A stretch of 27,746 bases of DNA from a virus. Its lineage: Duplodnaviria; Caudoviricetes. Made by a program: the position numbers and the translations under genes. Shown one piece after another: positions 1 through 27,352 of this stretch. The DNA is taken from IMG/VR virus record IMGVR_UViG_3300043218_000107, positions 1-27,746 of that record, one strand, 5' to 3'. Each line of letters opens with the position of its first letter. Position 1 is the first letter of the stretch. The notes under the pieces are model-generated. The model ran no database searches. It was not told where the DNA came from and worked only from the letters and a program-made list of their open reading frames with translations.

Positions 1-1392
1 GTCTTATATGTATTACCGGCGAATACGCCAGATGCTAATGATTTTAGTACTGCTCGTTTTGATCCTGCGCTTGAAATGAGCCACCATCTTACTAATCTTT
101 TTACAGATGTAAAAAATATTGGCCATAAGCGCGCGGGCAATGCGAACCTTTATATACGTGGCTCAAGGTCAAGATCACAACTTAAGTCAATTCCTGTTGC
201 TGTTGTAATCGTAGATGAAAAAGATGAAATGGTACAGGAAAATGTTGCAATGATTTTTGAACGTATGTCAGGTCAACTTGAAAAACAAGCATTTCAAATA
301 TCAACACCGACTATTGATAAATTTGGGATTAATTCTGATTTTATTCTCAGTTCTCAAAATTATTATATGTTTAAATGTCCTCGTTGTTCGAGATATACAC
401 GTTTAGAATTTCCTGATTGTTTAGTAATTACGGCTGATGATGTAACTGATCCACATTTGCAAGATAGTTATTTAGTTTGTAAAGAATGTAAAGGTAAATT
501 GATTCATGAAGCAAAAACTGAATGGCTTGGATTCGATAATGCAAAATGGATTCCATCATATACTGATAGGTACATATCCGGATATCATATTAATCAATTA
601 TACTCAATGACAGTTAAGCCTTGGGAAATTGCTAATTTATTTTTAAAAGCTCAAACTAATCCTTCGGATGAACAAGAATTTTTTAATTCGAAACTTGGAA
701 TAACCCATACTGTAGAAGGTGCAAGAGTCACTGATTCGGAAATCGAATCCTGCACCGGTGATTTTAAGAAAGCAGTAACTCCTCCACCAAATGCATTATT
801 GACTATGGGAGTTGATGTTGGCAAATGGTTGCATTATGAAATTGATCAATGGTTCTTCGATAAAGACGATTTAGCTCTTGATATAAATTTGACAGCAGTT
901 GCAAAATTAATCTATGAAGGTAAGGTTTTACATTTTGAAGAACTTGATAAATTAATGCAACGATTCGGGATAATGTTTTGTGTTATTGATGCACACCCTG
1001 AGAAAAGAAAAGCTCTTGAGTTTGCACAAAGACATTGGGGACATGCACGACTTTGTTATTATGGTAATAATATTGGAGCTTCAAAACAAATTCATCTTCA
1101 TGCTGAGGAAGAACATACAATGACAGTTGATAGAACCTCATGGCTCGATATGAGTTTCTCAAGATTCCATGGAAATAGAATTAGATTACCTATTGATTTA
1201 TCACATCAATATAAGGATCATATTAAGGCTCCAGTACGTGTGTATGAAAAAGATGGGTATGGTAATCCTATTGGTCGATATGTTACAGGGAATGAGGACG
1301 ACCATTTTGCCCATGCTCGAAATTATGCTGAACTTGCTCTGCCACTGGCAGCTCAAATAACAATGTCTTACGACATAGGGAAAGTATTATGA
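1..1392 (+). CDS. Terminase large subunit, lambda gpA-like (5'-truncated by window edge)
   Basis: Frame is open from base 1. Walker B-like VVIVDEKD, coupling motif ISTPT, Zn-binding CPRC...CKEC, RNase H-like nuclease motifs MGVDVG and DDHFAHA. Lies directly upstream of the portal. Confidence 0.88.
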   Translation, partial: VLYVLPANTPDANDFSTARFDPALEMSHHLTNLFTDVKNIGHKRAGNANLYIRGSRSRSQLKSIPVAVVIVDEKDEMVQENVAMIFERMSGQLEKQAFQISTPTIDKFGINSDFILSSQNYYMFKCPRCSRYTRLEFPDCLVITADDVTDPHLQDSYLVCKECKGKLIHEAKTEWLGFDNAKWIPSYTDRYISGYHINQLYSMTVKPWEIANLFLKAQTNPSDEQEFFNSKLGITHTVEGARVTDSEIESCTGDFKKAVTPPPNALLTMGVDVGKWLHYEIDQWFFDKDDLALDINLTAVAKLIYEGKVLHFEELDKLMQRFGIMFCVIDAHPEKRKALEFAQRHWGHARLCYYGNNIGASKQIHLHAEEEHTMTVDRTSWLDMSFSRFHGNRIRLPIDLSHQYKDHIKAPVRVYEKDGYGNPIGRYVTGNEDDHFAHARNYAELALPLAAQITMSYDIGKVL

Positions 1393-3098
1393 AAACATGG
1401 ATTCCTATTTTTGCCCGAGCAAAGACGCCCGCTGAAATTACACACCCTGACTATGCTTCTGCAACAGCGGATTGGCTCAAATTTAGAGAGACGTATGTTG
1501 GCGGAAAAGCTTTTGTCAATAAGTATCTCAGGAAATTTAGTTTGAGAGAGGATGTTACTGATTTTTCAAATCGGAAGCTAATCTCTTATTGTCCTGCTCA
1601 TGCCAAAGCTGCGTTGATTGATATTAAAAATTCAATCTACCAACGTATGTTTGATATTACCAGAAGCGAAGGTGATCAAACATATCAAGATGCAATTAAA
1701 GGTCTTATGGGTGGAGTAGATTTGGAAGGTCGGACAATGACTAATTTTATTGGGACTCTTACTCTTCCTGAATTAATTTCAATGGGAAAAGTTGGAGTAT
1801 ATGTTGATAAATTTCCTATGCCTGATCAAGCAACCAAAGCCAATATCCAAGGGATACGACCTTATATTTATTATTATCCGGCAGAGGATATTCGATCTTG
1901 GACAATTCAGAATAATATATTAGTTTCTTTGCTTCTTCGTGACTATGTTGAAGAAATTGATGAAATTACTGGATTAGTTACAGGAGTTGTTGAAAAATAT
2001 CGACATCTTCAATTAGTAGAAGCCGGTGTAACTTTTCAGATGTATGATAAAAATGGGATTAAAGAAGGTCAGCAAGCTATAATGAATCTTGGACAAATAC
2101 CTTTTGCTCTTGGACAATTATCTCAAAGCTTGTTGACAGATGTTGCCGATTATCAAATTGCATTATTAAATCTTGAAAGTTCAGACATTGCATATTCGCT
2201 CCAGTCAAATTTTCCATTTTATACAGAGCAGTTCGATCCTCGGATGAAAAATGTTAAATCGATTGTTACAACGGCAGAGGAAGATGGACAGCCTAAAAGA
2301 GAGAATGTCACTGATTCGGGAAATCCGGATATTAAAGTCGGTGTGACAAAAGGTCGTGCATACCCGAAGGGTTTCGAACGTCCAGGATTTATTCATCCTT
2401 CTGGAGAACCTCTTCGAGTGAGTATGGAGAAACAAGCCAAATTAAAACAAGATATTCGGAAGCTTGTGAACCTTTCGTTATCAAATCTTGAAAGACCTTC
2501 TGGCTCAGAACCTTCAAGAGAATTAGATGTTAAAGGTCTTGAAGCAGGGCTATCAAATATTGGTCTTGAACTTGAGAAACTTGAAAGACATATTGCTTCT
2601 ATTTGGGCTAATTATCAACACTCTGAAATTGCTGAGATTAAATATCCCAAGGACTACAGTTTGAAAACGGATGCGGATCGTCGAAAAGAAGCTTCAGAAT
2701 TAACAAAGCTCAAGGAAACTGTTCCTTCTCAAATTTATCAACGAGAACTTTCTAAAGAAATTATTACTGTGACAATGGAACAGAAAGTTTCTTCTGCTGA
2801 TTTGGAAAAGATGCATAGTGAAGTTGATTCTGCAGAGGTTCTTATAACAGATCATGAAACACTCCGTGAAGATCATAAAGAAGGCTTGGTGTCGTCTGAG
2901 ACAGCGAGCAAGGCAATGGGCTATCCTGAAAATGAAGTGGATCAAGCTAAAAAAGATCATGCTGAACGTGCTGCCGCTATTGTAGCTGCTCAGAAGTCTG
3001 TTAGTAATCGTGGCGCACCTGATCTACAACAACCTGGCGACGCTGACCTTGATAAGCAAAATAAGGACGGCCGAGGAGAAGGTAATACTGATGAGTAA
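1389..3098 (+). CDS. Portal protein
   Basis: 569 aa, ATGA overlap with terminase. N-terminal HPDY...W.KFRETY.GG...YL..F..E....F..R pattern typical of siphovirus portals, with a low-complexity charged C-terminal tail. Confidence 0.82.
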   Translation: MKTWIPIFARAKTPAEITHPDYASATADWLKFRETYVGGKAFVNKYLRKFSLREDVTDFSNRKLISYCPAHAKAALIDIKNSIYQRMFDITRSEGDQTYQDAIKGLMGGVDLEGRTMTNFIGTLTLPELISMGKVGVYVDKFPMPDQATKANIQGIRPYIYYYPAEDIRSWTIQNNILVSLLLRDYVEEIDEITGLVTGVVEKYRHLQLVEAGVTFQMYDKNGIKEGQQAIMNLGQIPFALGQLSQSLLTDVADYQIALLNLESSDIAYSLQSNFPFYTEQFDPRMKNVKSIVTTAEEDGQPKRENVTDSGNPDIKVGVTKGRAYPKGFERPGFIHPSGEPLRVSMEKQAKLKQDIRKLVNLSLSNLERPSGSEPSRELDVKGLEAGLSNIGLELEKLERHIASIWANYQHSEIAEIKYPKDYSLKTDADRRKEASELTKLKETVPSQIYQRELSKEIITVTMEQKVSSADLEKMHSEVDSAEVLITDHETLREDHKEGLVSSETASKAMGYPENEVDQAKKDHAERAAAIVAAQKSVSNRGAPDLQQPGDADLDKQNKDGRGEGNTDE

Positions 3099-3777
3099 AT
3101 TAGAATACACCCATGAGGTTGGTGGAATCCCGACCGATGCTGTATCGGTTATTTTTGATGATGCAGGACATAAATATGGAATCAAAAGAAGTGACAATGA
3201 TGCTATTGTTGTTTCTGATGGTTACGAAATGATTCATGTCGGAGTCGGGCAGTATGAGTACGAGTTTAATGATCCTGAATATGATCTGACGTATGATTAC
3301 TCTATTAACGTCGAATATCCAGCTTCTACTTTTAATTATGTCGCTGGACAACTTACAGGATCAACTCTTGCAACTGATGGCGGTTCACTTGTCACAGTTG
3401 AAGAAGGCGATGCATATTTTTCATTTCGTCTTTTTGCTGATCCATGGGAAGATGCAGATGATTTGGACAAGCAGAAAGCTCTTGTTATGTCCACTAAAGC
3501 TGTTGAAGTTTTAGCTCTTATGGATTTTGATGAAACACCACAAGATATTAAAGACGCGATTTGTGAAAATGCATATGCGTTATTAGATGGTGTAAATTCT
3601 GAGATGGAATTTGAAAATTTGTCAATGGTGCAACAAGGGTACGCTAATGTTCGGTCAACCTACAACCGTGGTATTAGCATGGAACATATTGAATCCGGCA
3701 TCGTCAGTATAACTGCATGGCGACTTATTAAGCCGTATCTCGATGTATCCAGAGTAATTCAACTTAGTAGGGTATAA
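3091..3777 (+). CDS. Putative head-tail adaptor (DnaT-like/gp15-like C-terminal domain) with an extra N-terminal beta-rich domain
   Basis: Start moved to ATG 3091 (GAGGAG/AAGG upstream). C-terminal half VTVEEGDAYF...W....DKQKALV...PQDIKDAICE.A resembles phage head-completion proteins. N-terminal half is beta/Ig-like (GVGQYEYEF). Confidence 0.55.
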   Translation: MSKLEYTHEVGGIPTDAVSVIFDDAGHKYGIKRSDNDAIVVSDGYEMIHVGVGQYEYEFNDPEYDLTYDYSINVEYPASTFNYVAGQLTGSTLATDGGSLVTVEEGDAYFSFRLFADPWEDADDLDKQKALVMSTKAVEVLALMDFDETPQDIKDAICENAYALLDGVNSEMEFENLSMVQQGYANVRSTYNRGISMEHIESGIVSITAWRLIKPYLDVSRVIQLSRV

Positions 3778-3789
3778 ATGGAGGTAATT

Positions 3790-4644
3790 ATGAAAACGTT
3801 GTTATTTGCAAAAGATTATGCCCAAGTATGGGTACCGGTATTCGATGATGATGCTGCGGTGAAAGTTGCCCAAAAATATTATGACAGCATCGAAGATAAG
3901 GAATCAGATGCAGCTAAAAACGCCAAACTTATGCTTGACGCGGCAAAGAAAGCAGCTGATTCGTCAAATCTGTTTACTCAGGATCAAGTCAACGGCTTTT
4001 TGGCCGAAGACAAAAAGAAACACCAAACTGCTCATCAGAAGACTTTAGATGAGTTGGAAGCTGTCCAAAAGAAATCGAATCTTTCGGTTGGGGAGCGTAA
4101 TGAACTTGAGAAACAGATTACAGAAACTCGGAAGCTTCTGGAAACAAAAGAAGCGACAACCGAGGAAGCGCTTAAGAAAGCTCAAAAAGCGCATGTAAAG
4201 GAAGTTGAAACTCTCACAGGCGAGAGGAATTTATGGCAAGGACGGTATACCAAGTCGACGATCAATAACAGCTTAACACAAGCTGCGGTCGCCAACAAGG
4301 CTGGCAATCCTGCTCAGGTTATTGCAATATTACAGCCCATCACCACTCTTACAGAGGAGTTAGACCCGAAAGGAAAGCCGACAGGGCAACTTGTCCCAAT
4401 GGTCGCCTGGAAAGATAAGGACGACAAAGGCAAAGATGTAGCCTTGACGCTTACACCTTCGGATGTTGTCAAGAGAATGTCAGAAATGGACGAGCACCTG
4501 AATTTATTCAGTGCTGACGGTGAGGGTGGTCAAGGCAAATTTAGAAGATCAGCTGCGGGCGATATTGATGTCCGCGAAACCGCTAAAGACCCCGCTGCTT
4601 ACCGGAAGGCACGTAAAGAAGGTGCCATACCGATTGGAAACTAA
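3790..4644 (+). CDS. Capsid scaffolding protein
   Basis: GGAGGT RBS before ATG 3790. K/E-rich coiled coil, FTQDQVN motif, LF...G.GG near the C-terminus. Lies immediately upstream of the major capsid gene. Confidence 0.75.
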   Translation: MKTLLFAKDYAQVWVPVFDDDAAVKVAQKYYDSIEDKESDAAKNAKLMLDAAKKAADSSNLFTQDQVNGFLAEDKKKHQTAHQKTLDELEAVQKKSNLSVGERNELEKQITETRKLLETKEATTEEALKKAQKAHVKEVETLTGERNLWQGRYTKSTINNSLTQAAVANKAGNPAQVIAILQPITTLTEELDPKGKPTGQLVPMVAWKDKDDKGKDVALTLTPSDVVKRMSEMDEHLNLFSADGEGGQGKFRRSAAGDIDVRETAKDPAAYRKARKEGAIPIGN

Positions 4645-4663
4645 GCAGGAGGAAAAAACAACC

Positions 4664-6064
4664 ATGAAATTTTATTTTGAAAAAATCTGGACACCCGTCT
4701 TTGACGGTAATGACATTGACGCCCTTATCCCCGAGGTATGGGCACAAGAAGCCTTGATGGTTCTCGAAGCCAATGCAGTTGCGGCTGGCCTCGTCTATCG
4801 AGACTTTGAAGACGAAATCGCGCAATTCGGCGATATCGTAAACGCGCATCGTCCGCGCAAATTCCAGGCCAAACGGAAGGGCTATGACGATGATGTTGTA
4901 ACTCAAGCGGCAGTCGCGGATAATATTCCGGTGCCATTGAACCAGCATCTGTATACTTCCTTCATCATCAAAGATGGTGAGGAATCCAAGTCCTTCAAAT
5001 CACTGCGGGATATGTATTTGATTCCGGCCTTGGAATCAATCAATCAGGCCATGGACGTGATGGTTCTCGGCCAGGTCTACAATTTCCTCGACAATGCCGT
5101 GGGTCAGTTAGGTGTGGCTCTGGATGAAGACACCGTTGTCGATGTTGAGACCAAATTCAACACGCTTCATGTGCCGCCCGGCCAACGTTTTGGACTTCTG
5201 ACCCCGCAGGCCAAAGGTCAGGCATCCAAGATTGACAAATTCACGGATGCCAACCGTATTGGTGATGATGGTACTGCCATTAGAACCGGCGCCCTGGGGT
5301 TCTTGTATGGAACCAACTGGATTATGGCGCAAAATGCTCCGTTCATCAGTTCCGAGCGTGAAGTCTATGCAACAGCTCTGACCGCCAATGAACCTATTGG
5401 TGAAACAGTTCTTGCTGTTACGGCTTTTGCCGCTGAGCATGATGCCCATGTTGGTGGGTGGTTAACTGTTGCCGGTGATATGACACCACAGAAGATTATC
5501 TCTGTGGATAATGCCGCCGAAACAATTACCATTTCCCCGGGCCTGAGAGATGCCTGTGTCAGTACAGCAGTTGTTACCATTTATGTTCCTGGTCTGATCG
5601 ACCTGTCGGCAGGTTATGCAGCCGACTGGTACAAAGAGGTTGAGATAGACACTGTCACCGTCGCTCCCGAAACCGGTCAGCTCATGAGTTTTGATGATGC
5701 GACCACTCCGGCAGCTTTTACGTCCGAAAGTGCGTATGCCGTTATGCCGGGCGCAACCACCACGTTAGTCCTGCCAGAAGTACCTGTCAGGGTAGCCGTG
5801 GATAATAATGATATCGTCGGTCTTGGGCCGTCGGGTAATTATAGCTTCTGCTTTCATCCCGAAGCGATCGCCCTTGTGACCCGTCCTCTGGCAGCCCCGG
5901 CAGCCGGAACCGGCGCGCTCGCATCCGTTGCAAGCTATAACGGATTGTCCATTCGTGTTGTTATGACATATGATGGTGTGAAGCAAGGTCATTTGGTGAC
6001 CGTCGATATGCTGTGTGGCATCAAGGTTCTGAATACCGACCTTGGTATTCCACTGCTCAGCTAA
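4664..6064 (+). CDS. Major capsid protein, HK97 fold, P22 coat-like, with internal insertion
   Basis: AGGAGG RBS before ATG 4664 (466 aa). IPEVWAQEAL..LE...V.RDFE..I...GD.V at the N-terminus and FHPEAIALVTRPL...GLSIRVVMTYD...VDMLCGIKVL at the C-terminus. Higher GC than neighbouring genes. Confidence 0.88.
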   Translation: MKFYFEKIWTPVFDGNDIDALIPEVWAQEALMVLEANAVAAGLVYRDFEDEIAQFGDIVNAHRPRKFQAKRKGYDDDVVTQAAVADNIPVPLNQHLYTSFIIKDGEESKSFKSLRDMYLIPALESINQAMDVMVLGQVYNFLDNAVGQLGVALDEDTVVDVETKFNTLHVPPGQRFGLLTPQAKGQASKIDKFTDANRIGDDGTAIRTGALGFLYGTNWIMAQNAPFISSEREVYATALTANEPIGETVLAVTAFAAEHDAHVGGWLTVAGDMTPQKIISVDNAAETITISPGLRDACVSTAVVTIYVPGLIDLSAGYAADWYKEVEIDTVTVAPETGQLMSFDDATTPAAFTSESAYAVMPGATTTLVLPEVPVRVAVDNNDIVGLGPSGNYSFCFHPEAIALVTRPLAAPAAGTGALASVASYNGLSIRVVMTYDGVKQGHLVTVDMLCGIKVLNTDLGIPLLS

Positions 6065-6093
6065 GCTGATTTTTCAAATCAGAGGTGGAATTA

Positions 6094-6525
6094 ATGAACA
6101 ACTTAAGGCAAATAAGTAATATTATCTATCGGTTGAAACGAAATTATGGCGTTCTTGTTATTTTACGCCGTCTGATCAAAGATAGAACTGATCTTGAGAC
6201 TGGTAGAGTATCTCGGGAATATACCCAAGTTAAAATCAAACGGGGAATTGTTTTACCCGAGAAGCTTATTCCAACTTTTGCTTATGATCTTGCCTATATA
6301 GCTGCGAATAAAAATTTCACCTACGGCGGACTGTTTGGTTCTTCAACACGGCTTGTTATTCTTGATGGTAAGGACGTCCCATCGACTTTCATTATTACTG
6401 AGAATGATGAATTAGTTTTTAGTGATAAAGTTCATGCTGTAAAATCTATTAACGATACAGCAGAGAAGAAGGGATACATTCTAACAGTAACAACAATCTC
6501 AAGTGTGGATAAAGTCAATGAATGA
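6094..6525 (+). CDS. Putative head closure / head-tail joining protein
   Basis: GAGGT RBS before ATG 6094. Size and position after the capsid gene; DLETG motif and beta-barrel-like pattern (D.LVF..K...VK.I). Confidence 0.55.
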   Translation: MNNLRQISNIIYRLKRNYGVLVILRRLIKDRTDLETGRVSREYTQVKIKRGIVLPEKLIPTFAYDLAYIAANKNFTYGGLFGSSTRLVILDGKDVPSTFIITENDELVFSDKVHAVKSINDTAEKKGYILTVTTISSVDKVNE

Positions 6526-6991
6526 GAACTGGCCAAGATGGATATTTGCATCGGTTACAAAGCATTTTGATGGTAACTTGAATGCCTATGAAATTTTTTA
6601 TGAGGGTCAAAAGCGTTCGGCCGAGAATTTCCAAACTGACCTTATTGAGGTTCGAATGGACGGCCCGTATTATTTGCAGCTCAGTAAGACTGAGTATAAT
6701 GCAAAGATTGAAATTAATCTTCTTGCTCAAGCCGCAATTGACGAAAAAGATTTTCATAAGATTCATAGAATGGTTGGAGTAGTCGCGACAGGATTTGCCC
6801 CAGGAATCCAAGTTTTTAAGTATGGCAATGGGGTAAGTGATGATGATTCCTTGATCGGTTGCCTTGATCTAATCCAAGACCGTCAGAATAGGGAGTTTCT
6901 GGTAATAAATCACTTTGGTCAACTCGATCCTGAAAAACAGATAATGCAAGCCACTGTTGAAGGACATTACGAAATCCAATTAACTGGTTAA
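6518..6991 (+). CDS. Putative tail terminator / tail completion protein
   Basis: ATG 6518 overlaps the previous gene. About 157 aa, directly upstream of the tail tube gene. Assignment is from synteny. Confidence 0.5.
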   Translation: MNENWPRWIFASVTKHFDGNLNAYEIFYEGQKRSAENFQTDLIEVRMDGPYYLQLSKTEYNAKIEINLLAQAAIDEKDFHKIHRMVGVVATGFAPGIQVFKYGNGVSDDDSLIGCLDLIQDRQNREFLVINHFGQLDPEKQIMQATVEGHYEIQLTG

Positions 6992-7002
6992 AGGAGACAA
7001 CC

Positions 7003-7818
7003 ATGCATAATTTTGTAAGAATTTGGACACCCGTCTTCGCGACCATTGACCTCAAATATGCAACCATCACAATTAAGGATGGATCAATTGGTGCATTAGT
7101 ATCTGTTGCCGGTGGTGCTTCGGAATGGACAGACTCTCCGACGACTCCAGGTGAAGCATATTACACTGGAGCCGCCATGACGTCCAAACCTGTGCACGTT
7201 GAGCTTGGTGGTGTTGACATTACATTGCAAGAAGGGTCACTTGGCTCTCTCGTCGAGAATGAGTGGGCGTGGGGTGACCAAGATACCCTTGGCGCAAGTA
7301 CCATGTACATCAAGCTTCCTGGTGACGGTGATCCTGACGCTCTGGCTGCTGACTATCTCAAGATTGCTTTGACAGCAGTTCAAGAGAGCATTGAGGTCAA
7401 GATCGGTGAAGGAAATTTAACTTACTCCGAGAACAAAACGATTGAATATATTCTCGATCGTGGTCTTCTCGATGATGTTCGTGAAGGGGATCAGGTACCG
7501 CTTGATCTCAACTTCGACTTCCAATGGGAATATATTGTTGGTGCAACCGGCGGTAGCGTTCCAACGGTGGAAGAAGCGTTAAAGGGAACTGGTGAGGCAG
7601 ACGATTGGGTATCAACTGACTCGGATGCTTGTCGTCCGTATGCAGTTGATATTGAAATTGAGTATCTGCCTGTACCGGACACTTGTGGCGATGGTGAAGT
7701 CATTACGTTCAATGATTTCCGCTATGAGACCCTTGACCACGATCTTCGCGAGGGAACCATCAGTTGTTCTGGACGTTGTAATGTGACAAAGGCCACGGCT
7801 GTAAGGACTGCTCAATAA
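7003..7818 (+). CDS. Major tail (tube) protein with inserted domain
   Basis: AAGGAG RBS. Acidic, beta-rich 271 aa protein located between the completion genes and the chaperone/tape measure. Confidence 0.7.
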   Translation: MHNFVRIWTPVFATIDLKYATITIKDGSIGALVSVAGGASEWTDSPTTPGEAYYTGAAMTSKPVHVELGGVDITLQEGSLGSLVENEWAWGDQDTLGASTMYIKLPGDGDPDALAADYLKIALTAVQESIEVKIGEGNLTYSENKTIEYILDRGLLDDVREGDQVPLDLNFDFQWEYIVGATGGSVPTVEEALKGTGEADDWVSTDSDACRPYAVDIEIEYLPVPDTCGDGEVITFNDFRYETLDHDLREGTISCSGRCNVTKATAVRTAQ

Positions 7819-15877: not shown

Positions 15878-16015
15878 TTTGAGGAATCAAGAATGGCCGT
15901 AATTATTATTAATGAAGATGGACAGGCTTTTTATAGTCCACCAGAACTCGATGCTTTCACATATTATCGGGACTATATACTCAAACGAACTTTTAAGGAA
16001 TTCTTTGCATTGAAT
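15873..16015 (+). repeat. Direct repeat, copy 1 (upstream region plus 5' end of adhesin A)
   Basis: TCTGATTTGAGGAATCAA...ATGGCCGTAATTATTATT...GAAGATGGACAGGCTTTTTATAGTCC...GATGCTTTCACATATTA is near-identical to 17600-17742. Confidence 0.9.
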
Positions 16016-17581
16016 CCACAAGCTAATCTTGAAGGATGGCTTGATATTTCTGGACCGGCATATTGGCATTTTCTTGAACATTTCGACGCTCATTGGGAAG
16101 GTAATACCATTGTTATGGATGATGATGAAGATAGTTTATGGCTGACGCCAAGAAGATATGATGGACTTGAATGGAACGATTTTCCTCGAAATCAGCCAAA
16201 TACACTTCAAAATATGTTACCTACTTCTATTAGAGTGGTAATTGTAGATAAAAATAATAATGAAAAAATATTAACTAATTGTACAATAGCTGTTGGTGAT
16301 AAGTTGCCTTTTATGAGGGTGGATTTCGGAGAATCAGAAAATGGTGTTGAAGTAGTTTATGATCCATATAATGTCAGAGTTAGAGAGCCTAATCTTGCTC
16401 AAATTGTAACTCTACTACTTGATCATCTTTTAGAAGGAGACCGAGTTAAAAAAATTGAATTTAATTTTAGTATTTTTCCAAGAGCTAATTTTACAGTTCT
16501 TAAACAGTTAACATCAAAAGGTTTTTGGGGTTGGTACACTGAAAGTGCTGTTAATTCAAATGGAACTCCAGTTTTAATGCTTTCAAGTGGCTCTGATAAA
16601 CTTTATCATGCTATTTGGAATGGCGTATCTTGGGATGTTTATTACTTACCTGTTGATTATCTTTGGCAAGTAACTTATGCAGGTATTTCTATTGACAATT
16701 TTAATGAAGTTCATTATTTTGATCTTGGACTTATTCAAAATGAGCATACAAGAACATCATGGAATGTAAATGATGGTTGGTATGATCAATTTGTTGTTTA
16801 TGCAGCTGAAACTTGGGCGTATAGTAAAGCTATTGCTCTTGATAATAATGGATATACCCATCTTTTTACTATTTTCAGAAGATTGTCTGACAATAGTTAT
16901 TATATAAATGATTATTATCAAGATGCTTCCGGTTGGCATAATGAAGTACTCGTTGAGTTTGGAGTGAGTCCAGCTTATGGTACTTTTCAGCAGTATTCTC
17001 GTCTTGTTTTTGATAATTATAATCGATTTCATTTTATGATTTCAACGGAAGAAATTTCATCAGGTTTAAGTGGAATTTTATATATAACGAATGCCAATGT
17101 CCCTTTGACTACAGAATTTTTATGGGGCGTGGAGGCCGGCACGTTTACGATGCCCAGGTTAGTAAATTTTTGGATTGACAAAGATAATAATAATCATATG
17201 TATTATTTGGTAGCTATTCCAAGTCAAGACACTTTGAAACTTTTCGACAAAGCTTGGAGTAGTTCCAGTTGGACAGAAACTGAAATCGGGTCGGAGTATA
17301 CAGAAGTTCAATTTGCTGAGAAGCATAATAATCTATTACATATGTTAGAAGCTCTAAGTCTTGATGGCCCTGGTATGGGATATCATCAATATGATCTTGG
17401 CACAAAAACATTCTTAAAAACAGGATTAAGAGTATATGGTGATGTCATAATTAGGGATGATTGGCCAGGAGTACGTTGCCAAAGATTTAGTTCTACTTTT
17501 TTTATGAAAGATGGAAAACCTACTTTTGCGCAGATGGATTCTGATCAAATTGGTTTTCAAACTGTGGAGATTAATGAATAA
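15893..17581 (+). CDS. Putative receptor-binding/adhesin protein, copy A (beta-propeller-like C-terminus)
   Basis: 562 aa, aromatic and beta-rich, with recurring [IL]D.....H and W-ending blades. Paralog of 17619-19385. Confidence 0.55.
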   Translation: MAVIIINEDGQAFYSPPELDAFTYYRDYILKRTFKEFFALNPQANLEGWLDISGPAYWHFLEHFDAHWEGNTIVMDDDEDSLWLTPRRYDGLEWNDFPRNQPNTLQNMLPTSIRVVIVDKNNNEKILTNCTIAVGDKLPFMRVDFGESENGVEVVYDPYNVRVREPNLAQIVTLLLDHLLEGDRVKKIEFNFSIFPRANFTVLKQLTSKGFWGWYTESAVNSNGTPVLMLSSGSDKLYHAIWNGVSWDVYYLPVDYLWQVTYAGISIDNFNEVHYFDLGLIQNEHTRTSWNVNDGWYDQFVVYAAETWAYSKAIALDNNGYTHLFTIFRRLSDNSYYINDYYQDASGWHNEVLVEFGVSPAYGTFQQYSRLVFDNYNRFHFMISTEEISSGLSGILYITNANVPLTTEFLWGVEAGTFTMPRLVNFWIDKDNNNHMYYLVAIPSQDTLKLFDKAWSSSSWTETEIGSEYTEVQFAEKHNNLLHMLEALSLDGPGMGYHQYDLGTKTFLKTGLRVYGDVIIRDDWPGVRCQRFSSTFFMKDGKPTFAQMDSDQIGFQTVEINE

Positions 17582-17599
17582 TGGCTTTTCTTATATTAT

Positions 17600-17742
17600 T
17601 CTGATTTGAGGAATCAAAATGGCCGTAATTATTATTGGCGAAGATGGACAGGCTTTTTATAGTCCGCCAGAACTTGATGCTTTCACATATTACCGGGATT
17701 ATATACTCAAGCGAACTTTTGCAGAATTCTTGCAATTAAATC
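17600..17742 (+). repeat. Direct repeat, copy 2 (upstream region plus 5' end of adhesin B)
   Basis: Near-identical to 15873-16015, with mostly synonymous differences. Confidence 0.9.
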
Positions 17743-19385
17743 CTGGTGCTGCTGAGGAAGGATGGGTTGATGTTAGTGGTCAAGCTTGGTGGGAACTTGA
17801 TGTTGGAGATTCCGAACAGGATCAAGGGAATGTTGTGTGGGATGGGACTCATGTAGTTCAAGTTAAAGCTAATGAAGCCTTTAGTCTTGATGCAAAATTA
17901 AGAAGTTGGCCGGATTCACCGCCAGAGTTACCTTGGACTCGTTATCTACGTCCATCAAGAATAAGATTTACTGTTAAAAATGCAGGTGGTGCTCTTATAA
18001 CCGTGACAGCTTCGGGTCTTACATTCGATAATGATGGTGAATTTATGCAAGCCTTTGAAGTTGGGGCTGTAAATCTTCCAGATGGACTTATTTTTGCTGT
18101 TGACCCACAACAACCAATAGTCGGTGATAGTGACCATATTCAATCCATAAGATTTTCCTATTTTACAGGGAGAATGGTACCTGGCGATAGAATTATAAAA
18201 ATTGAATTTAATTATGATCCTCTTGATCGTGTTGATTATACTAATATCTTTGTTGAAATTGATATACCAGAAGTTACAAGTCGAGTCAATTTTGTAACAA
18301 CTGGCAGCAAAAGTGATGGCACACCTGTTATTCAATGCTCACAGGATAATGGTTATAACGATTATCATGGTATCTGGAATGGGGAGTCATGGGATTATTA
18401 TTATTTACCTGTTACTTCTGGTCAATCACAACTCGATATTATTGGTTATGATGATTTTGATAATGTTCATTATATCCAATCTGGAACTCCTGGAAGCTTT
18501 AAGCGATGGTCTTGGAACCTAAGTTCTGGTTTCTATGACCAGGATATAGATTTTTCAATCCGTCCAGGAGATCAATGCTGGAATCCAGTTATAGGCCGTA
18601 TGGAAGCAGTTGATCCAGATGGATACAATCATTTTGTAACTCGTGGTCGAACAACCGAGGGTAGATATTTTATTAGCCATTATTATCAAGATGCTTCTGG
18701 TTGGCATCATGAAGAGATTTTTGATTTCGGAGATAATGATATTGAAAATTATCCTTGGTTTCATCAATATTGTTCTCATTTAGATATGGCTATCGACAGT
18801 TATGGAAAGGTTCATGTATTTGTAGAAATAGTTATGAGGGAACCCCCACTTTGGGGTCAATCACAAGCTTTAGGGTATATTACAAATTCACGAACAAGTG
18901 GATGGACTTCTCAAATATTAGAACCTTGGGGGACAGGTGTTGGGCGACTTGACTGCGCGGATATTTATGTTGATCGTGAAAATGATAATTATTTAACAGG
19001 TATAATTGGTAGTTTTCAGTTACCACTTCTTTTTATGGAAAAAGAATTTACCGCTACAGATTGGACTTATACTGAGATTTTACCTGGCACTGACCATGAT
19101 TATCTTCAATCTGTTAAAATCGGTGACATTTATCATCTTCTTGGGAATCAGCAGCAGCAGGGCTATTATTATATAAAAATGATGGATTATCTAAAATATG
19201 ATGGCCCAAATCATGAAATTATAGCTGAGAAGAGTATGTATACGCCAGGTGCACTTATAACTCAAAGACAGATGCTCTGGGAACAAGTTTCATATTATGT
19301 AAGAGATGGAAAGCCAATACTATGTACGCCTGGGGAATATTGGAATCCTCTCAATTATTTTAATGAACAGGAGATTAATGAATAA
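17619..19385 (+). CDS. Putative receptor-binding/adhesin protein, copy B
   Basis: 588 aa. First ~42 aa nearly identical to copy A; shares YYQDASGWH and C-terminal EINE. Confidence 0.55.
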   Translation: MAVIIIGEDGQAFYSPPELDAFTYYRDYILKRTFAEFLQLNPGAAEEGWVDVSGQAWWELDVGDSEQDQGNVVWDGTHVVQVKANEAFSLDAKLRSWPDSPPELPWTRYLRPSRIRFTVKNAGGALITVTASGLTFDNDGEFMQAFEVGAVNLPDGLIFAVDPQQPIVGDSDHIQSIRFSYFTGRMVPGDRIIKIEFNYDPLDRVDYTNIFVEIDIPEVTSRVNFVTTGSKSDGTPVIQCSQDNGYNDYHGIWNGESWDYYYLPVTSGQSQLDIIGYDDFDNVHYIQSGTPGSFKRWSWNLSSGFYDQDIDFSIRPGDQCWNPVIGRMEAVDPDGYNHFVTRGRTTEGRYFISHYYQDASGWHHEEIFDFGDNDIENYPWFHQYCSHLDMAIDSYGKVHVFVEIVMREPPLWGQSQALGYITNSRTSGWTSQILEPWGTGVGRLDCADIYVDRENDNYLTGIIGSFQLPLLFMEKEFTATDWTYTEILPGTDHDYLQSVKIGDIYHLLGNQQQQGYYYIKMMDYLKYDGPNHEIIAEKSMYTPGALITQRQMLWEQVSYYVRDGKPILCTPGEYWNPLNYFNEQEINE

Positions 19386-19816
19386 TGGCAAAATTTTTAG
19401 AATATGTTGAAGCAATGAATATTATTGAAGGTGATACCGAAGGCGATGGAACTATCTACCTTCAAATTCAAAGCAGAGGATATGGTATCCAAGGTAATAT
19501 TGCTATATTTGAATTTTATCCAATGACAGCAGATGCGATTGGAGCAAATTCAAATAAAGGTATAATACCAATTCCACTTGAAGTCTTTGCCACTAATCAA
19601 AATCAGGGTTACATTGAATTACCATTTCCTTCTATGGAAGCAGAAGGTGAAATTCGAACAGCCAGAGCACAAATATACTGGCCTGTTATACAAACTGATG
19701 GTTTTATGACTTTTGAACCTTGGGCATATCTAATACTTCCAACTTTTGAAGTTATTTGTTTCGGAAATCCAAATAGAATTTATGAACTTTGTTTAAACAC
19801 AAATGAAGGTTTGTAA
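19385..19816 (+). CDS. Hypothetical protein (tail module)
   Basis: 143 aa, TAATG-coupled to the genes on both sides. No recognised motif. Confidence 0.6.
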   Translation: MAKFLEYVEAMNIIEGDTEGDGTIYLQIQSRGYGIQGNIAIFEFYPMTADAIGANSNKGIIPIPLEVFATNQNQGYIELPFPSMEAEGEIRTARAQIYWPVIQTDGFMTFEPWAYLILPTFEVICFGNPNRIYELCLNTNEGL

Positions 19817-20979
19817 TGAAAGAATTTTTATCAAAAAAGAATGTTATCATTGTTAAAAAAGGAACCAAAATAATCAATGGTAAAGATACTGGACGACCTT
19901 GTCTGATTATTGGTGTTTCTAAAAAGGTTTCAAAAAAACAATTAAAATCTGAAGACCTGATTCCTCAAATCACTCGGGATGGTCAGGTAACTGATGTTAT
20001 TATCCAAAAGCCTTTTAAAGCTTTGAATCAGTGTTATGATCCTGATCCAGATGATGGTTGTCCATTACATACTGATAAAATTCGACCAATGATTGGTGGA
20101 ATCAGTATTGGGAGAGCCAGTCAAAATATTACGGGAACTGGTGGACTTCTTGTTGGAGATGCAACAGATGGTGCGCTTGTTTTTTTAACAAATAATCATG
20201 TTATTAATTTACAGTTTGATCCTAATTATGCTTTTCCTCTTGGTGGAAGTCTTGATCCAACAGTTATTAAAATGATTCAACCCTCGCTACTTGATGGTGG
20301 TTCCGAGACAGCTGAATTCTTAATTGGATGGGGTAAAAGATGTATTCCAATTCAATTTGGTTCTTTAGGCGAGAATCGTGTGGATGCTGGTATTATTGAT
20401 ATAAGTGATCTGTCAGAAACAATGACAGATGTTCTCCATAAACATGCTGGCCCATTTCCGTTTCTTGCTAATAATGAAATTAATCCTGGCGATATTCTTG
20501 AGAAAAGTGGAAGATCAACTGGAAATACATCTGGAGTCATTTCAGCTATTGATGTAGCAGCTAATGTTAATTATATTAATGACGACCCAGAGAATGTTGG
20601 ACAATTTGTTGGTCAAATTTTAATTGAAACTGCTGATCGTTATAGTATGTCAGGTGATTCCGGTTCAGTTTGTACAAGAAAAACTGGCGGAGCGCATAGA
20701 GTAGCAGGATTATTATTTGCTGGTAGCGAAGATGGTAAATCAACTCTTGTTAATCCAATGGGGTCAGTTGCTTCTGAATTGCAAATTGAATCTTGGGATG
20801 GGAATATTTCAATTGCTCCTGGGGCACTTCCTGTTCTTGCTGTTCATTATCGTTGTTATAATATTACTAATGACTTTATTCTTGGTGATGCTTCACATAT
20901 ATCTCAAACTGCTTTTGCTTCCTGTAACGAATGTTTAACATTCCAATTTAAAAGAAATATATTAGGAAACGTTATCTAA
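19816..20979 (+). CDS. Trypsin-like (S1 clan, NAL1-like) serine protease with N-terminal prodomain
   Basis: Catalytic triad motifs LTNNHV (His), VDAG (Asp) and GDSGS (Ser). Also RPMIGGISIG, TGTGG, KSGRSTG.T.G and VAGLLFAG. Prodomain-like VSKK.....L..EDLIP......TDV. Confidence 0.88.
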   Translation: MKEFLSKKNVIIVKKGTKIINGKDTGRPCLIIGVSKKVSKKQLKSEDLIPQITRDGQVTDVIIQKPFKALNQCYDPDPDDGCPLHTDKIRPMIGGISIGRASQNITGTGGLLVGDATDGALVFLTNNHVINLQFDPNYAFPLGGSLDPTVIKMIQPSLLDGGSETAEFLIGWGKRCIPIQFGSLGENRVDAGIIDISDLSETMTDVLHKHAGPFPFLANNEINPGDILEKSGRSTGNTSGVISAIDVAANVNYINDDPENVGQFVGQILIETADRYSMSGDSGSVCTRKTGGAHRVAGLLFAGSEDGKSTLVNPMGSVASELQIESWDGNISIAPGALPVLAVHYRCYNITNDFILGDASHISQTAFASCNECLTFQFKRNILGNVI

Positions 20980-27154: not shown

Positions 27155-27352
27155 ATGCCACAACGAAAAAGAAAAAGCGGTGGAAAGAAATGGATTCAAG
27201 GTGCAATCAAAAACCCAGGTTCCTTGACCCGCACGGCAAAAGGGAAAGGGATGTCAATAGCAGCGTTTTGCGCCCAGCCAAAAAGTAAGCTGAGCGCAAC
27301 AAGTAAACGTCGCTGAAATTTACGAAAAACCCTGGTAGGGTTTAAGAAATAA
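27155..27352 (+). CDS. Small highly basic protein with in-frame TGA at codon 54 (candidate selenoprotein, 65 aa; 53 aa if TGA is a stop)
   Basis: AAGGA RBS. Translates as MPQRKRKSGGKKWIQGAIKNPGSLTRTAKGKGMSIAAFCAQPKSKLSATSKRR-TGA-NLRKTLVGFKK-TAA, with a hairpin whose loop begins 17 nt after the TGA. Confidence 0.65.
27325..27343. promoter_or_regulatory. Hairpin: SECIS-like on + strand and/or intrinsic terminator on - strand
   Basis: AAACCCT-GGT-AGGGTTT at 27327-27343. On the - strand it ends in TTTTT right at the exonuclease stop. Confidence 0.55.

Follow-up and report, generated by a model that had tools for sequence, protein, structure and literature searches.

A shared N-terminal leader on head and tail proteins of an uncultured phage family, and a candidate phage-encoded C39-like peptidase for its removal

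The viral record IMGVR_UViG_3300043218_000107, of which we analyzed the whole 27,746-nucleotide stretch (the window), covers the structural region of a tailed phage and encodes a GpA-type terminase, portal, adaptor, scaffold, P22-like capsid, tail tube, and tape measure. Its best-matching sequencing runs are marine sediment metagenomes; seven runs contain at least half of its words, and four are possible sources. The portal, scaffold, capsid, and tail tube proteins each carry the motif W-x-P-[VI]-F close to the N-terminus (Table 1). Here we describe this motif as the end of a short leader, its distribution in the phage family, and a candidate phage-encoded peptidase that probably removes it.

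An earlier note on this DNA, made without database searches, had placed the motif within the first 18 residues of the four proteins, and both the positions and the codons it gave are correct: the motif lies within residues 4–18 in all of them, and these are the only four matches among 55,488 six-frame positions in the window. By chance, 0.003 matches would be expected within the first 25 residues of 32 genes. In a control that allows for post hoc choice of the motif by scoring any 4-of-5 spaced word common to at least four segments, four-way sharing occurred in one of 2,000 draws of internal segments.

Table 1. Leader-bearing genes of the window and related features outside it. A slash marks the predicted cut; motif starts are nucleotide positions in the window; aa, amino acids; SD, Shine-Dalgarno.
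Feature	Location	Strand	Motif	Remarks
Portal leader MKTWIPIF, 8 aa	1389..1412	+	1398, WIPIF/AR, Trp at residue 4	Predicted cut F8/A9; weak SD-like AGGGA upstream
Portal protein gene, 569 aa	1389..3098	+		phrog_145, E 6.8e-34
Scaffold leader, 18 aa ending WVPVF	3790..3843	+	3829, WVPVF/DD, Trp at residue 14	Predicted cut F18/D19; GGAGGT 5 nt before ATG at 3790
Scaffolding protein gene, 284 aa	3790..4644	+		Identity inferred from position before capsid and charged composition
Major capsid leader, 13 aa ending WTPVF	4664..4702	+	4688, WTPVF/DG, Trp at residue 9	Predicted cut F13/D14; AGGAGG upstream of ATG at 4664
P22-like major capsid protein gene, 466 aa	4664..6064	+		P22-coat PF11651, E 8e-17; phrog_283, E 5e-48
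Tail tube leader, 12 aa ending WTPVF	7003..7038	+	7024, WTPVF/AT, Trp at residue 8	Predicted cut F12/A13; AAGGAG upstream
Tail tube protein gene, 271 aa	7003..7818	+		ESM Atlas feature match of homolog; Foldseek fold matches
Gp80-like fibre, predicted fifth substrate	L003:3816-4637, outside window			Upstream of terminase
Candidate peptidase, 162 aa, stand-alone	G001:39433-39918, outside window			Q..C..H..D pattern

Neither the scaffold nor the tail tube has a Pfam or PHROG match. The scaffold gene is conserved directly upstream of the capsid gene across relatives. For the tail tube, a PDB sequence search with the tube profile returned no matches, but a homolog gives an ESM Atlas feature match to Phi812_tail_tube (0.96), and Foldseek matches are to tail tube and major tail proteins (E 3e-3 to 3e-2). 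The tube also contains an insertion of about 95 residues after the first strands, found in 4–5 of 21 aligned homologs, and some relatives encode two tube paralogs with inserts similar to a domain inserted in the capsid.

Judged from alignments, the motif ends an appended leader, as had been suspected. In leaderless homologs, the initiator Met stands at the position of the leader's final Phe. This register places F/ATIDL of the tube against M/AAIDL, with Phe12 aligned to the initiator Met in eight leaderless rows of 21; F/ANSL against M/ANAL in capsids, the leaderless homologs of which begin M-AND or M-ANA; F/ARAK against M/ARKS in portals, the leaderless homolog L013 beginning M-ARKSK; and F/DDDT against M/SDDT in tape measures. 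The capsid match to phrog_283 begins at residue 15, at profile position 2, and in an AlphaFold2 (AF2) model of the tube the predicted local distance difference test score (pLDDT) is below 50 for residues 1–7, the first strand starting from residue 12. Among the closest relatives, the residues upstream of the motif vary freely, while W-x-P-[VI]-F is kept, including in the scaffold. Numbering residues outward from the predicted cut (P1 before it, P1' after it), we infer cleavage after Phe, in the F/A or F/D register that the earlier note had proposed: the final Phe aligns with the ancestral Met, and P1' is A, D, or E in 159 of 193 leaders across the family.

Translation starts lie upstream of the motif. 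An SD-like site precedes the leader ATG in each of the four window genes, though it is weak for the portal, and 183 of the 193 leaders have an SD-like site and an upstream ATG or GTG, the median leader length being 13; just three have an in-frame start at P1'–P3'. The earlier note had allowed that the true starts might lie downstream of the motif, or that close relatives might lack it; we find instead that the motif and its upstream starts are conserved family-wide.

The same leaders speak to an extremely improbable explanation, in which the conserved stretch is a DNA or RNA element (an operator or translational control) or a by-product of 5'-end copying and the peptide is incidental. The earlier statement that the codons differ needs one correction: in the window, the motifs of capsid and tube agree at 14 of 15 nt, and both genes have ACAACC ahead of the ATG, so 5' cassette copying is possible for that pair. 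Capsid and scaffold have identical fourfold-degenerate codons in 41 of 99 cases against a background of about 0.31 (p 0.018), a mild excess that suggests occasional copying. Over the 193 leaders, however, third codon positions are near uniform, carrying 0.05–0.10 bit at P4–P2, and therefore the constraint is on the peptide, as had been claimed. Moreover, pairs involving the tube show no codon excess (20/56 and 17/51), and although copying may spread leaders, it does not keep them in place.

We obtained 153 capsid loci by scanning viral and genome contigs and reduced them to 94 representatives, and 88 of the 93 intact representatives have a capsid leader. The parser called 82 of these; the 12 set aside comprise five leaderless capsids, one truncated, and six leader-bearing by eye but mis-anchored. 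Scaffold leader calls number 75, with 11 rows dropped as wrong or leaderless. The tail tube leader was called in 36 of the 76 representatives with a tube match (three dropped), or about half, and portal leaders are clear by eye in eight of 56 rows, making the portal, on this count, an occasional presumed substrate. The proposed extension of the leader to portal and tail tube is correct for the window, where both are tagged, but describes only part of the family. Conversely, the leader is also found on the Gp80-like fibre, in contigs 99.2–99.97% identical to the window, and on the tape measures of genomes G009 and G010. A scan of 11 genomes yielded no convincing non-virion substrate, only three weak 3-of-5 matches.

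The strict motif is present in only 12 of the 82 capsid leaders. The family profile is W/F at P5, P/T/A at P3, V/A at P2, and Y/F at P1, with the capsid leaders distributed at P1 as Y (38), F (32), G (6), H (4), and C (2). P1 varies among these five residues and covaries within a genome. From P5 to P1, capsid and scaffold of the same genome are identical at 3.34 of five positions, as opposed to 1.14 when shuffled (none of 10,000 shuffles reach the observed value) and 2.14 with the nearest relative's scaffold (own genome better in 48 cases and worse in five, n=71). Capsid–tube and scaffold–tube pairs show similar within-genome matching (n=32 each). Deviant leaders include those of L320 (G072), whose capsid and scaffold both have a basic P1 (K or R), that of L326 (G064), with an aliphatic P1, and a clade (L316, L317, L322, and L325) ending W-x-G.

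Leaderless capsids occur at six separate places in the capsid trees, in which the starred branches force six changes and the root is not known; the simplest reading of these placements is that the leader was lost repeatedly. No additional leaderless relatives emerged when the leaderless capsid L021 was used as scan query. A partial loss is found in L342/G088 (L379:6868, 7662; L381:2383-2760), in which capsid and tube are leaderless, the scaffold leader is kept, and the copy of the candidate peptidase described below is highly divergent. This echoes phage 80alpha, where the scaffold leader alone is essential.

Contig G001 is 99.9% identical to window positions 4551-27746 by sequence comparison, and from it we picked the candidate peptidase on the basis of its Q..C..H..D pattern. 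Its AF2 model (pLDDT 94.7) has a papain/C39-like fold. The top structural match is the C39 peptidase LahT with bound leader (6mpz; VIA-align Z 10.7, root-mean-square deviation 2.6, 117 aligned), tied with staphopain, PeiR, PCAT1, and ComA; the upper list is mostly papain-like, the C39 matches having Z 9.7–10.7. Conservation in the family is near complete for the predicted catalytic residues (Cys 44/44, His 43/44, Asp/Asn 42/44). None of 27 members matches Pfam C39 at E≤1, the G001 peptidase has no other Pfam match and no BFVD Foldseek match at E≤0.001, and Atlas structure rows aligned to C39 stay below the Atlas naming bar. On the strength of its model, the enzyme is C39-like in fold, yet not a Pfam C39 member. 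The gene is a stand-alone open reading frame (ORF) at all loci read, usually after VRR-NUC and NYN genes and before a sigma-70-region-4-like gene, which lies within three genes of it in six of 10 genomes. A second papain-like-looking ORF, permuted and found in G002/G004 (L027:3748), was discarded as a candidate, having no homolog in the window or the G001 pieces and no Pfam match.

The earlier note had suggested that the leader might co-occur with a particular protease, and the C39-like peptidase behaves in this way. It is present in all 44 contigs that reach its locus and bear a leader on capsid or scaffold, and in neither of the two such contigs with a leaderless capsid, G012 (which has no leaders) and G084, where the flanking genes lie side by side (Fisher p 0.001). 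The 44 include the near-duplicates G036/G037, a weak match in G019, and G088, whose divergent copy retains Cys and His. Omitted were 23 contigs shorter than 48 kb from capsid-selected sets, all without a match and with locus coverage unchecked; two metagenome-assembled genomes (MAGs); five contigs lacking the capsid start; and four contigs ending before the locus (G011, G078, and G089, with leaders, and the leaderless G035). By selection, the peptidase matches 15/31 and 5/16 of capsid-selected records and 29/33 of polymerase-selected ones, including 9/9 of those at least 90% complete, while all three peptidase-selected contigs that reach a capsid have leaders.

From these alignments and the structural model, we consider it probable that the 8–18-residue leader is a propeptide and that the phage-encoded papain/C39-like peptidase would cut it after the final Phe. 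Late virion proteins are encoded with the leader. The peptidase, recognizing about five residues (W/F at P5, a hydrophobic P2, and mostly F/Y at P1), would bind P5–P1 in the cytoplasm and cut before A, D, or E, restoring the ancestral N-terminus, that is, the one given by Met removal in leaderless relatives. Because its gene is in the replication/middle module, beside the sigma-70-region-4-like gene, the enzyme would already have been made when the late proteins appear and, in contrast to a prohead protease, would process both head and tail components in the cytoplasm. Before its removal, the leader probably serves as a folding aid or to delay assembly, by analogy to 80alpha. A speculative and rather doubtful extension is that head and tail proteins cannot assemble, or escape host sensors that recognize capsid, portal, and tail tube, until the phage's own peptidase frees them, and that a five-residue password drifting between lineages bars co-infecting relatives and satellites from sharing parts. 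If so, the peptidase family would be a natural library of orthogonal tag-removal proteases leaving a native N-terminus.

Several observations weigh against cleavage by this enzyme. The oxyanion Gln is kept in just 23 of the 44 peptidases, the gene lies outside the morphogenesis cluster, and in 80alpha cleavage itself is dispensable (PMC5744158). The negative class of the association is tiny. G084 is ambiguous, as its scaffold has an SD-led extension ending in Phe although there is no peptidase, and without it the association becomes 44/44 versus 0/1 (p 0.02). That leaves G012 as the sole clean negative genome, and by BLAST it also lacks the ligase-like, Rho_N, and methyltransferase genes and two small families. 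Finally, in partial Mantel tests on 34 genomes (five others dropped for doubtful site calls, and the rest for having no polymerase locus), with capsid and polymerase controlled for, leader and peptidase distances are not significantly correlated (r 0.065, p 0.25), whereas leader distance does track polymerase distance (r 0.34, p 0.0005). The latter would be expected equally of a determinant encoded in the replication module, the location of the peptidase gene, and of a host-linked factor. In the same genomes, leader distance follows DNA polymerase distance and not capsid distance, although the leader sits inside the capsid and scaffold genes.

If polymerase distance is a proxy of host lineage, this tracking could also reflect a host protease, Prp-like or other, that cuts the leader as in 80alpha, the phage peptidase having another role. 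The combination of F/Y at P1 with A/D/E at P1' likewise resembles the Prp F/A site (PMC9405229). We nevertheless judge this unlikely: the LQ(F/L)F motif is absent from the leaders, P1 varies and covaries within a genome in a manner that suits a fast-evolving phage partner, and the distribution of the peptidase follows the leader. A link to extensions of host ribosomal protein L27, for which the earlier note had advised a search, gained no support: a JGI metagenome scan returned no L27 beginning [WF]xx[VIM][FY]-A-x-KK, although its control was weak, the L27 part of the pattern matching in just one of four incomplete MAGs. Five MAG matches from unrelated taxa were set aside as host pointers since they look like mis-binned phage contigs.

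Alternatively, the leader could be a binding tag, retained or incidentally removed, that addresses structural proteins to a common chaperone, a membrane site, or each other. The hydrophobic, mildly basic character (+1.2) of the leader favors this view. There is also precedent in the 80alpha scaffold leader, which is required but need not be cleaved and for which a common chaperone was proposed (PMC5744158), and in the capsid-targeting sequences of T4, which are 10–20-residue addresses (PMC5694885). However, conservation breaks off abruptly where the ancestral Met stood, and the choice of residues at P1' is narrow, as for a cut site; a peptidase with intact catalytic residues co-occurs; and the tail tube, tape measure, and fibre have no common head address. 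A binding tag thus seems rather improbable, and we retain cleavage by the C39-like peptidase as the preferred reading.

The window itself encodes another protease, a NAL1-like trypsin-type serine protease (19816-20979) in the tail region, directly before a conserved 818-aa tail gene; it matches phrog_20754 'protease' and keeps H, D, and a GDSG motif. It could in principle remove the leaders, but this is very unlikely; it occurs in just two of 13 fetched genomes (G001 and G002), plus G004, lying at the same place in G002 and G004, and is absent from 11 other fetched genomes; the leader-bearing terminal-repeat genomes G009, G013, and G034 lack it. We therefore rejected it as a general maturase for being too sporadic.

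Other features of the window include two tandem paralogous ORFs of 560–590 aa (15893-19385) with near-identical N-termini, a 5' DNA repeat, and Trp/Tyr-rich bodies with no family match, which are possibly receptor-binding variants. A very basic 53-aa ORF (phrog_20603; 27155-27316) follows the lysis genes, opposite an exonuclease. The relative G003 encodes a protein with a prepilin-type N-methyl motif that scores below the Pfam cut-off (L029:13590-14114) as well as a TROVE/Ro60 protein (L030:7603-9159). Read mapping yielded contigs only, and an RNA run, in which 11 of 30 bins were covered, is uninformative about expression.

Why phage structural proteins should have removable leaders is an open question even for 80alpha, whose leader is cut by a host protease that is essential and cannot be knocked out. 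The phages described here, a widespread uncultured group, seem to supply their own small enzyme, and they offer dozens of natural enzyme–leader pairs; together with the near-complete leader losses and the one partial loss, these make the question testable with recombinant proteins. If our interpretation is correct, the system would introduce a class of phage maturation protease that is papain-like, distinct from the prohead type, and active on both head and tail. It would also assign a function to a core gene that lacks annotation, allow predicted N-termini to be corrected family-wide, and offer site-specific proteases with varied P1 preference.

We found no description of this leader–peptidase system in the literature searched, which did not extend to most subscription papers. 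The closest parallel is the 80alpha leader, removed by the host cysteine protease Prp (MEROPS C108), which is likewise N-terminal and common to the non-homologous capsid and scaffold; it is 12–14 residues long and is cut after Phe before a small residue, and its motif was also noted on the major tail protein of phi13 (PMC5744158). The short capsid and scaffold leader, aromatic P1, and small or acidic P1' seen here are Prp-like traits. In contrast to the Prp-type consensus, which resembles MLxx(D/N)LQ(F/L)F'A(S/H)KK (PMC9405229), the present leaders have W/F at P5 and no LQ, Gln being outside the six commonest P3 residues, occur in genome-specific variants, and are also found on the portal, tape measure, and fibre. 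The enzymes also differ: the candidate is papain-like and comes from the phage, Prp is assigned to clan CR, and none of five phage records, including the terminal-repeat genome G002, matches Prp (PF04327) at E≤1. As proposed, the system would operate in the manner of the 80alpha/Prp leader without belonging to that type, in agreement with the earlier suggestion that it is analogous but distinct.

In having one phage enzyme for N-terminal propeptides on many unrelated virion proteins, the proposed system resembles T4 gp21 and gp245 of the giant phage SPN3US; the substrates of giant-phage prohead proteases include the portal, and the T4 tags are 10–20 residues long (PMC5694885). Those proteases cut after Glu and process head proteins, whereas here P1 is mostly aromatic (F/Y/G/H/C) and tail proteins are tagged; the candidate has a predicted papain-like fold and its gene belongs to the replication module, and no prohead protease family was found by Pfam or PHROG among the head-cluster genes of the window. 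A third comparison is with the C39 double-glycine leader peptidases (LahT, PCAT1, and ComA), with which the candidate shares a papain-like fold and the arrangement of an N-terminal Gln/Cys followed by His-Asp. Unlike these, it stands alone at the loci read, with no fusion to an ATP-binding cassette (ABC) transporter, longer fused forms elsewhere not having been searched for, and its presumed virion-protein leaders end mostly in F/Y rather than Gly-Gly, P1 being Gly in only six of 82 capsid leaders. The activity we propose would nonetheless be in keeping with the known job of C39 peptidases, which is leader removal (PMC10318531).

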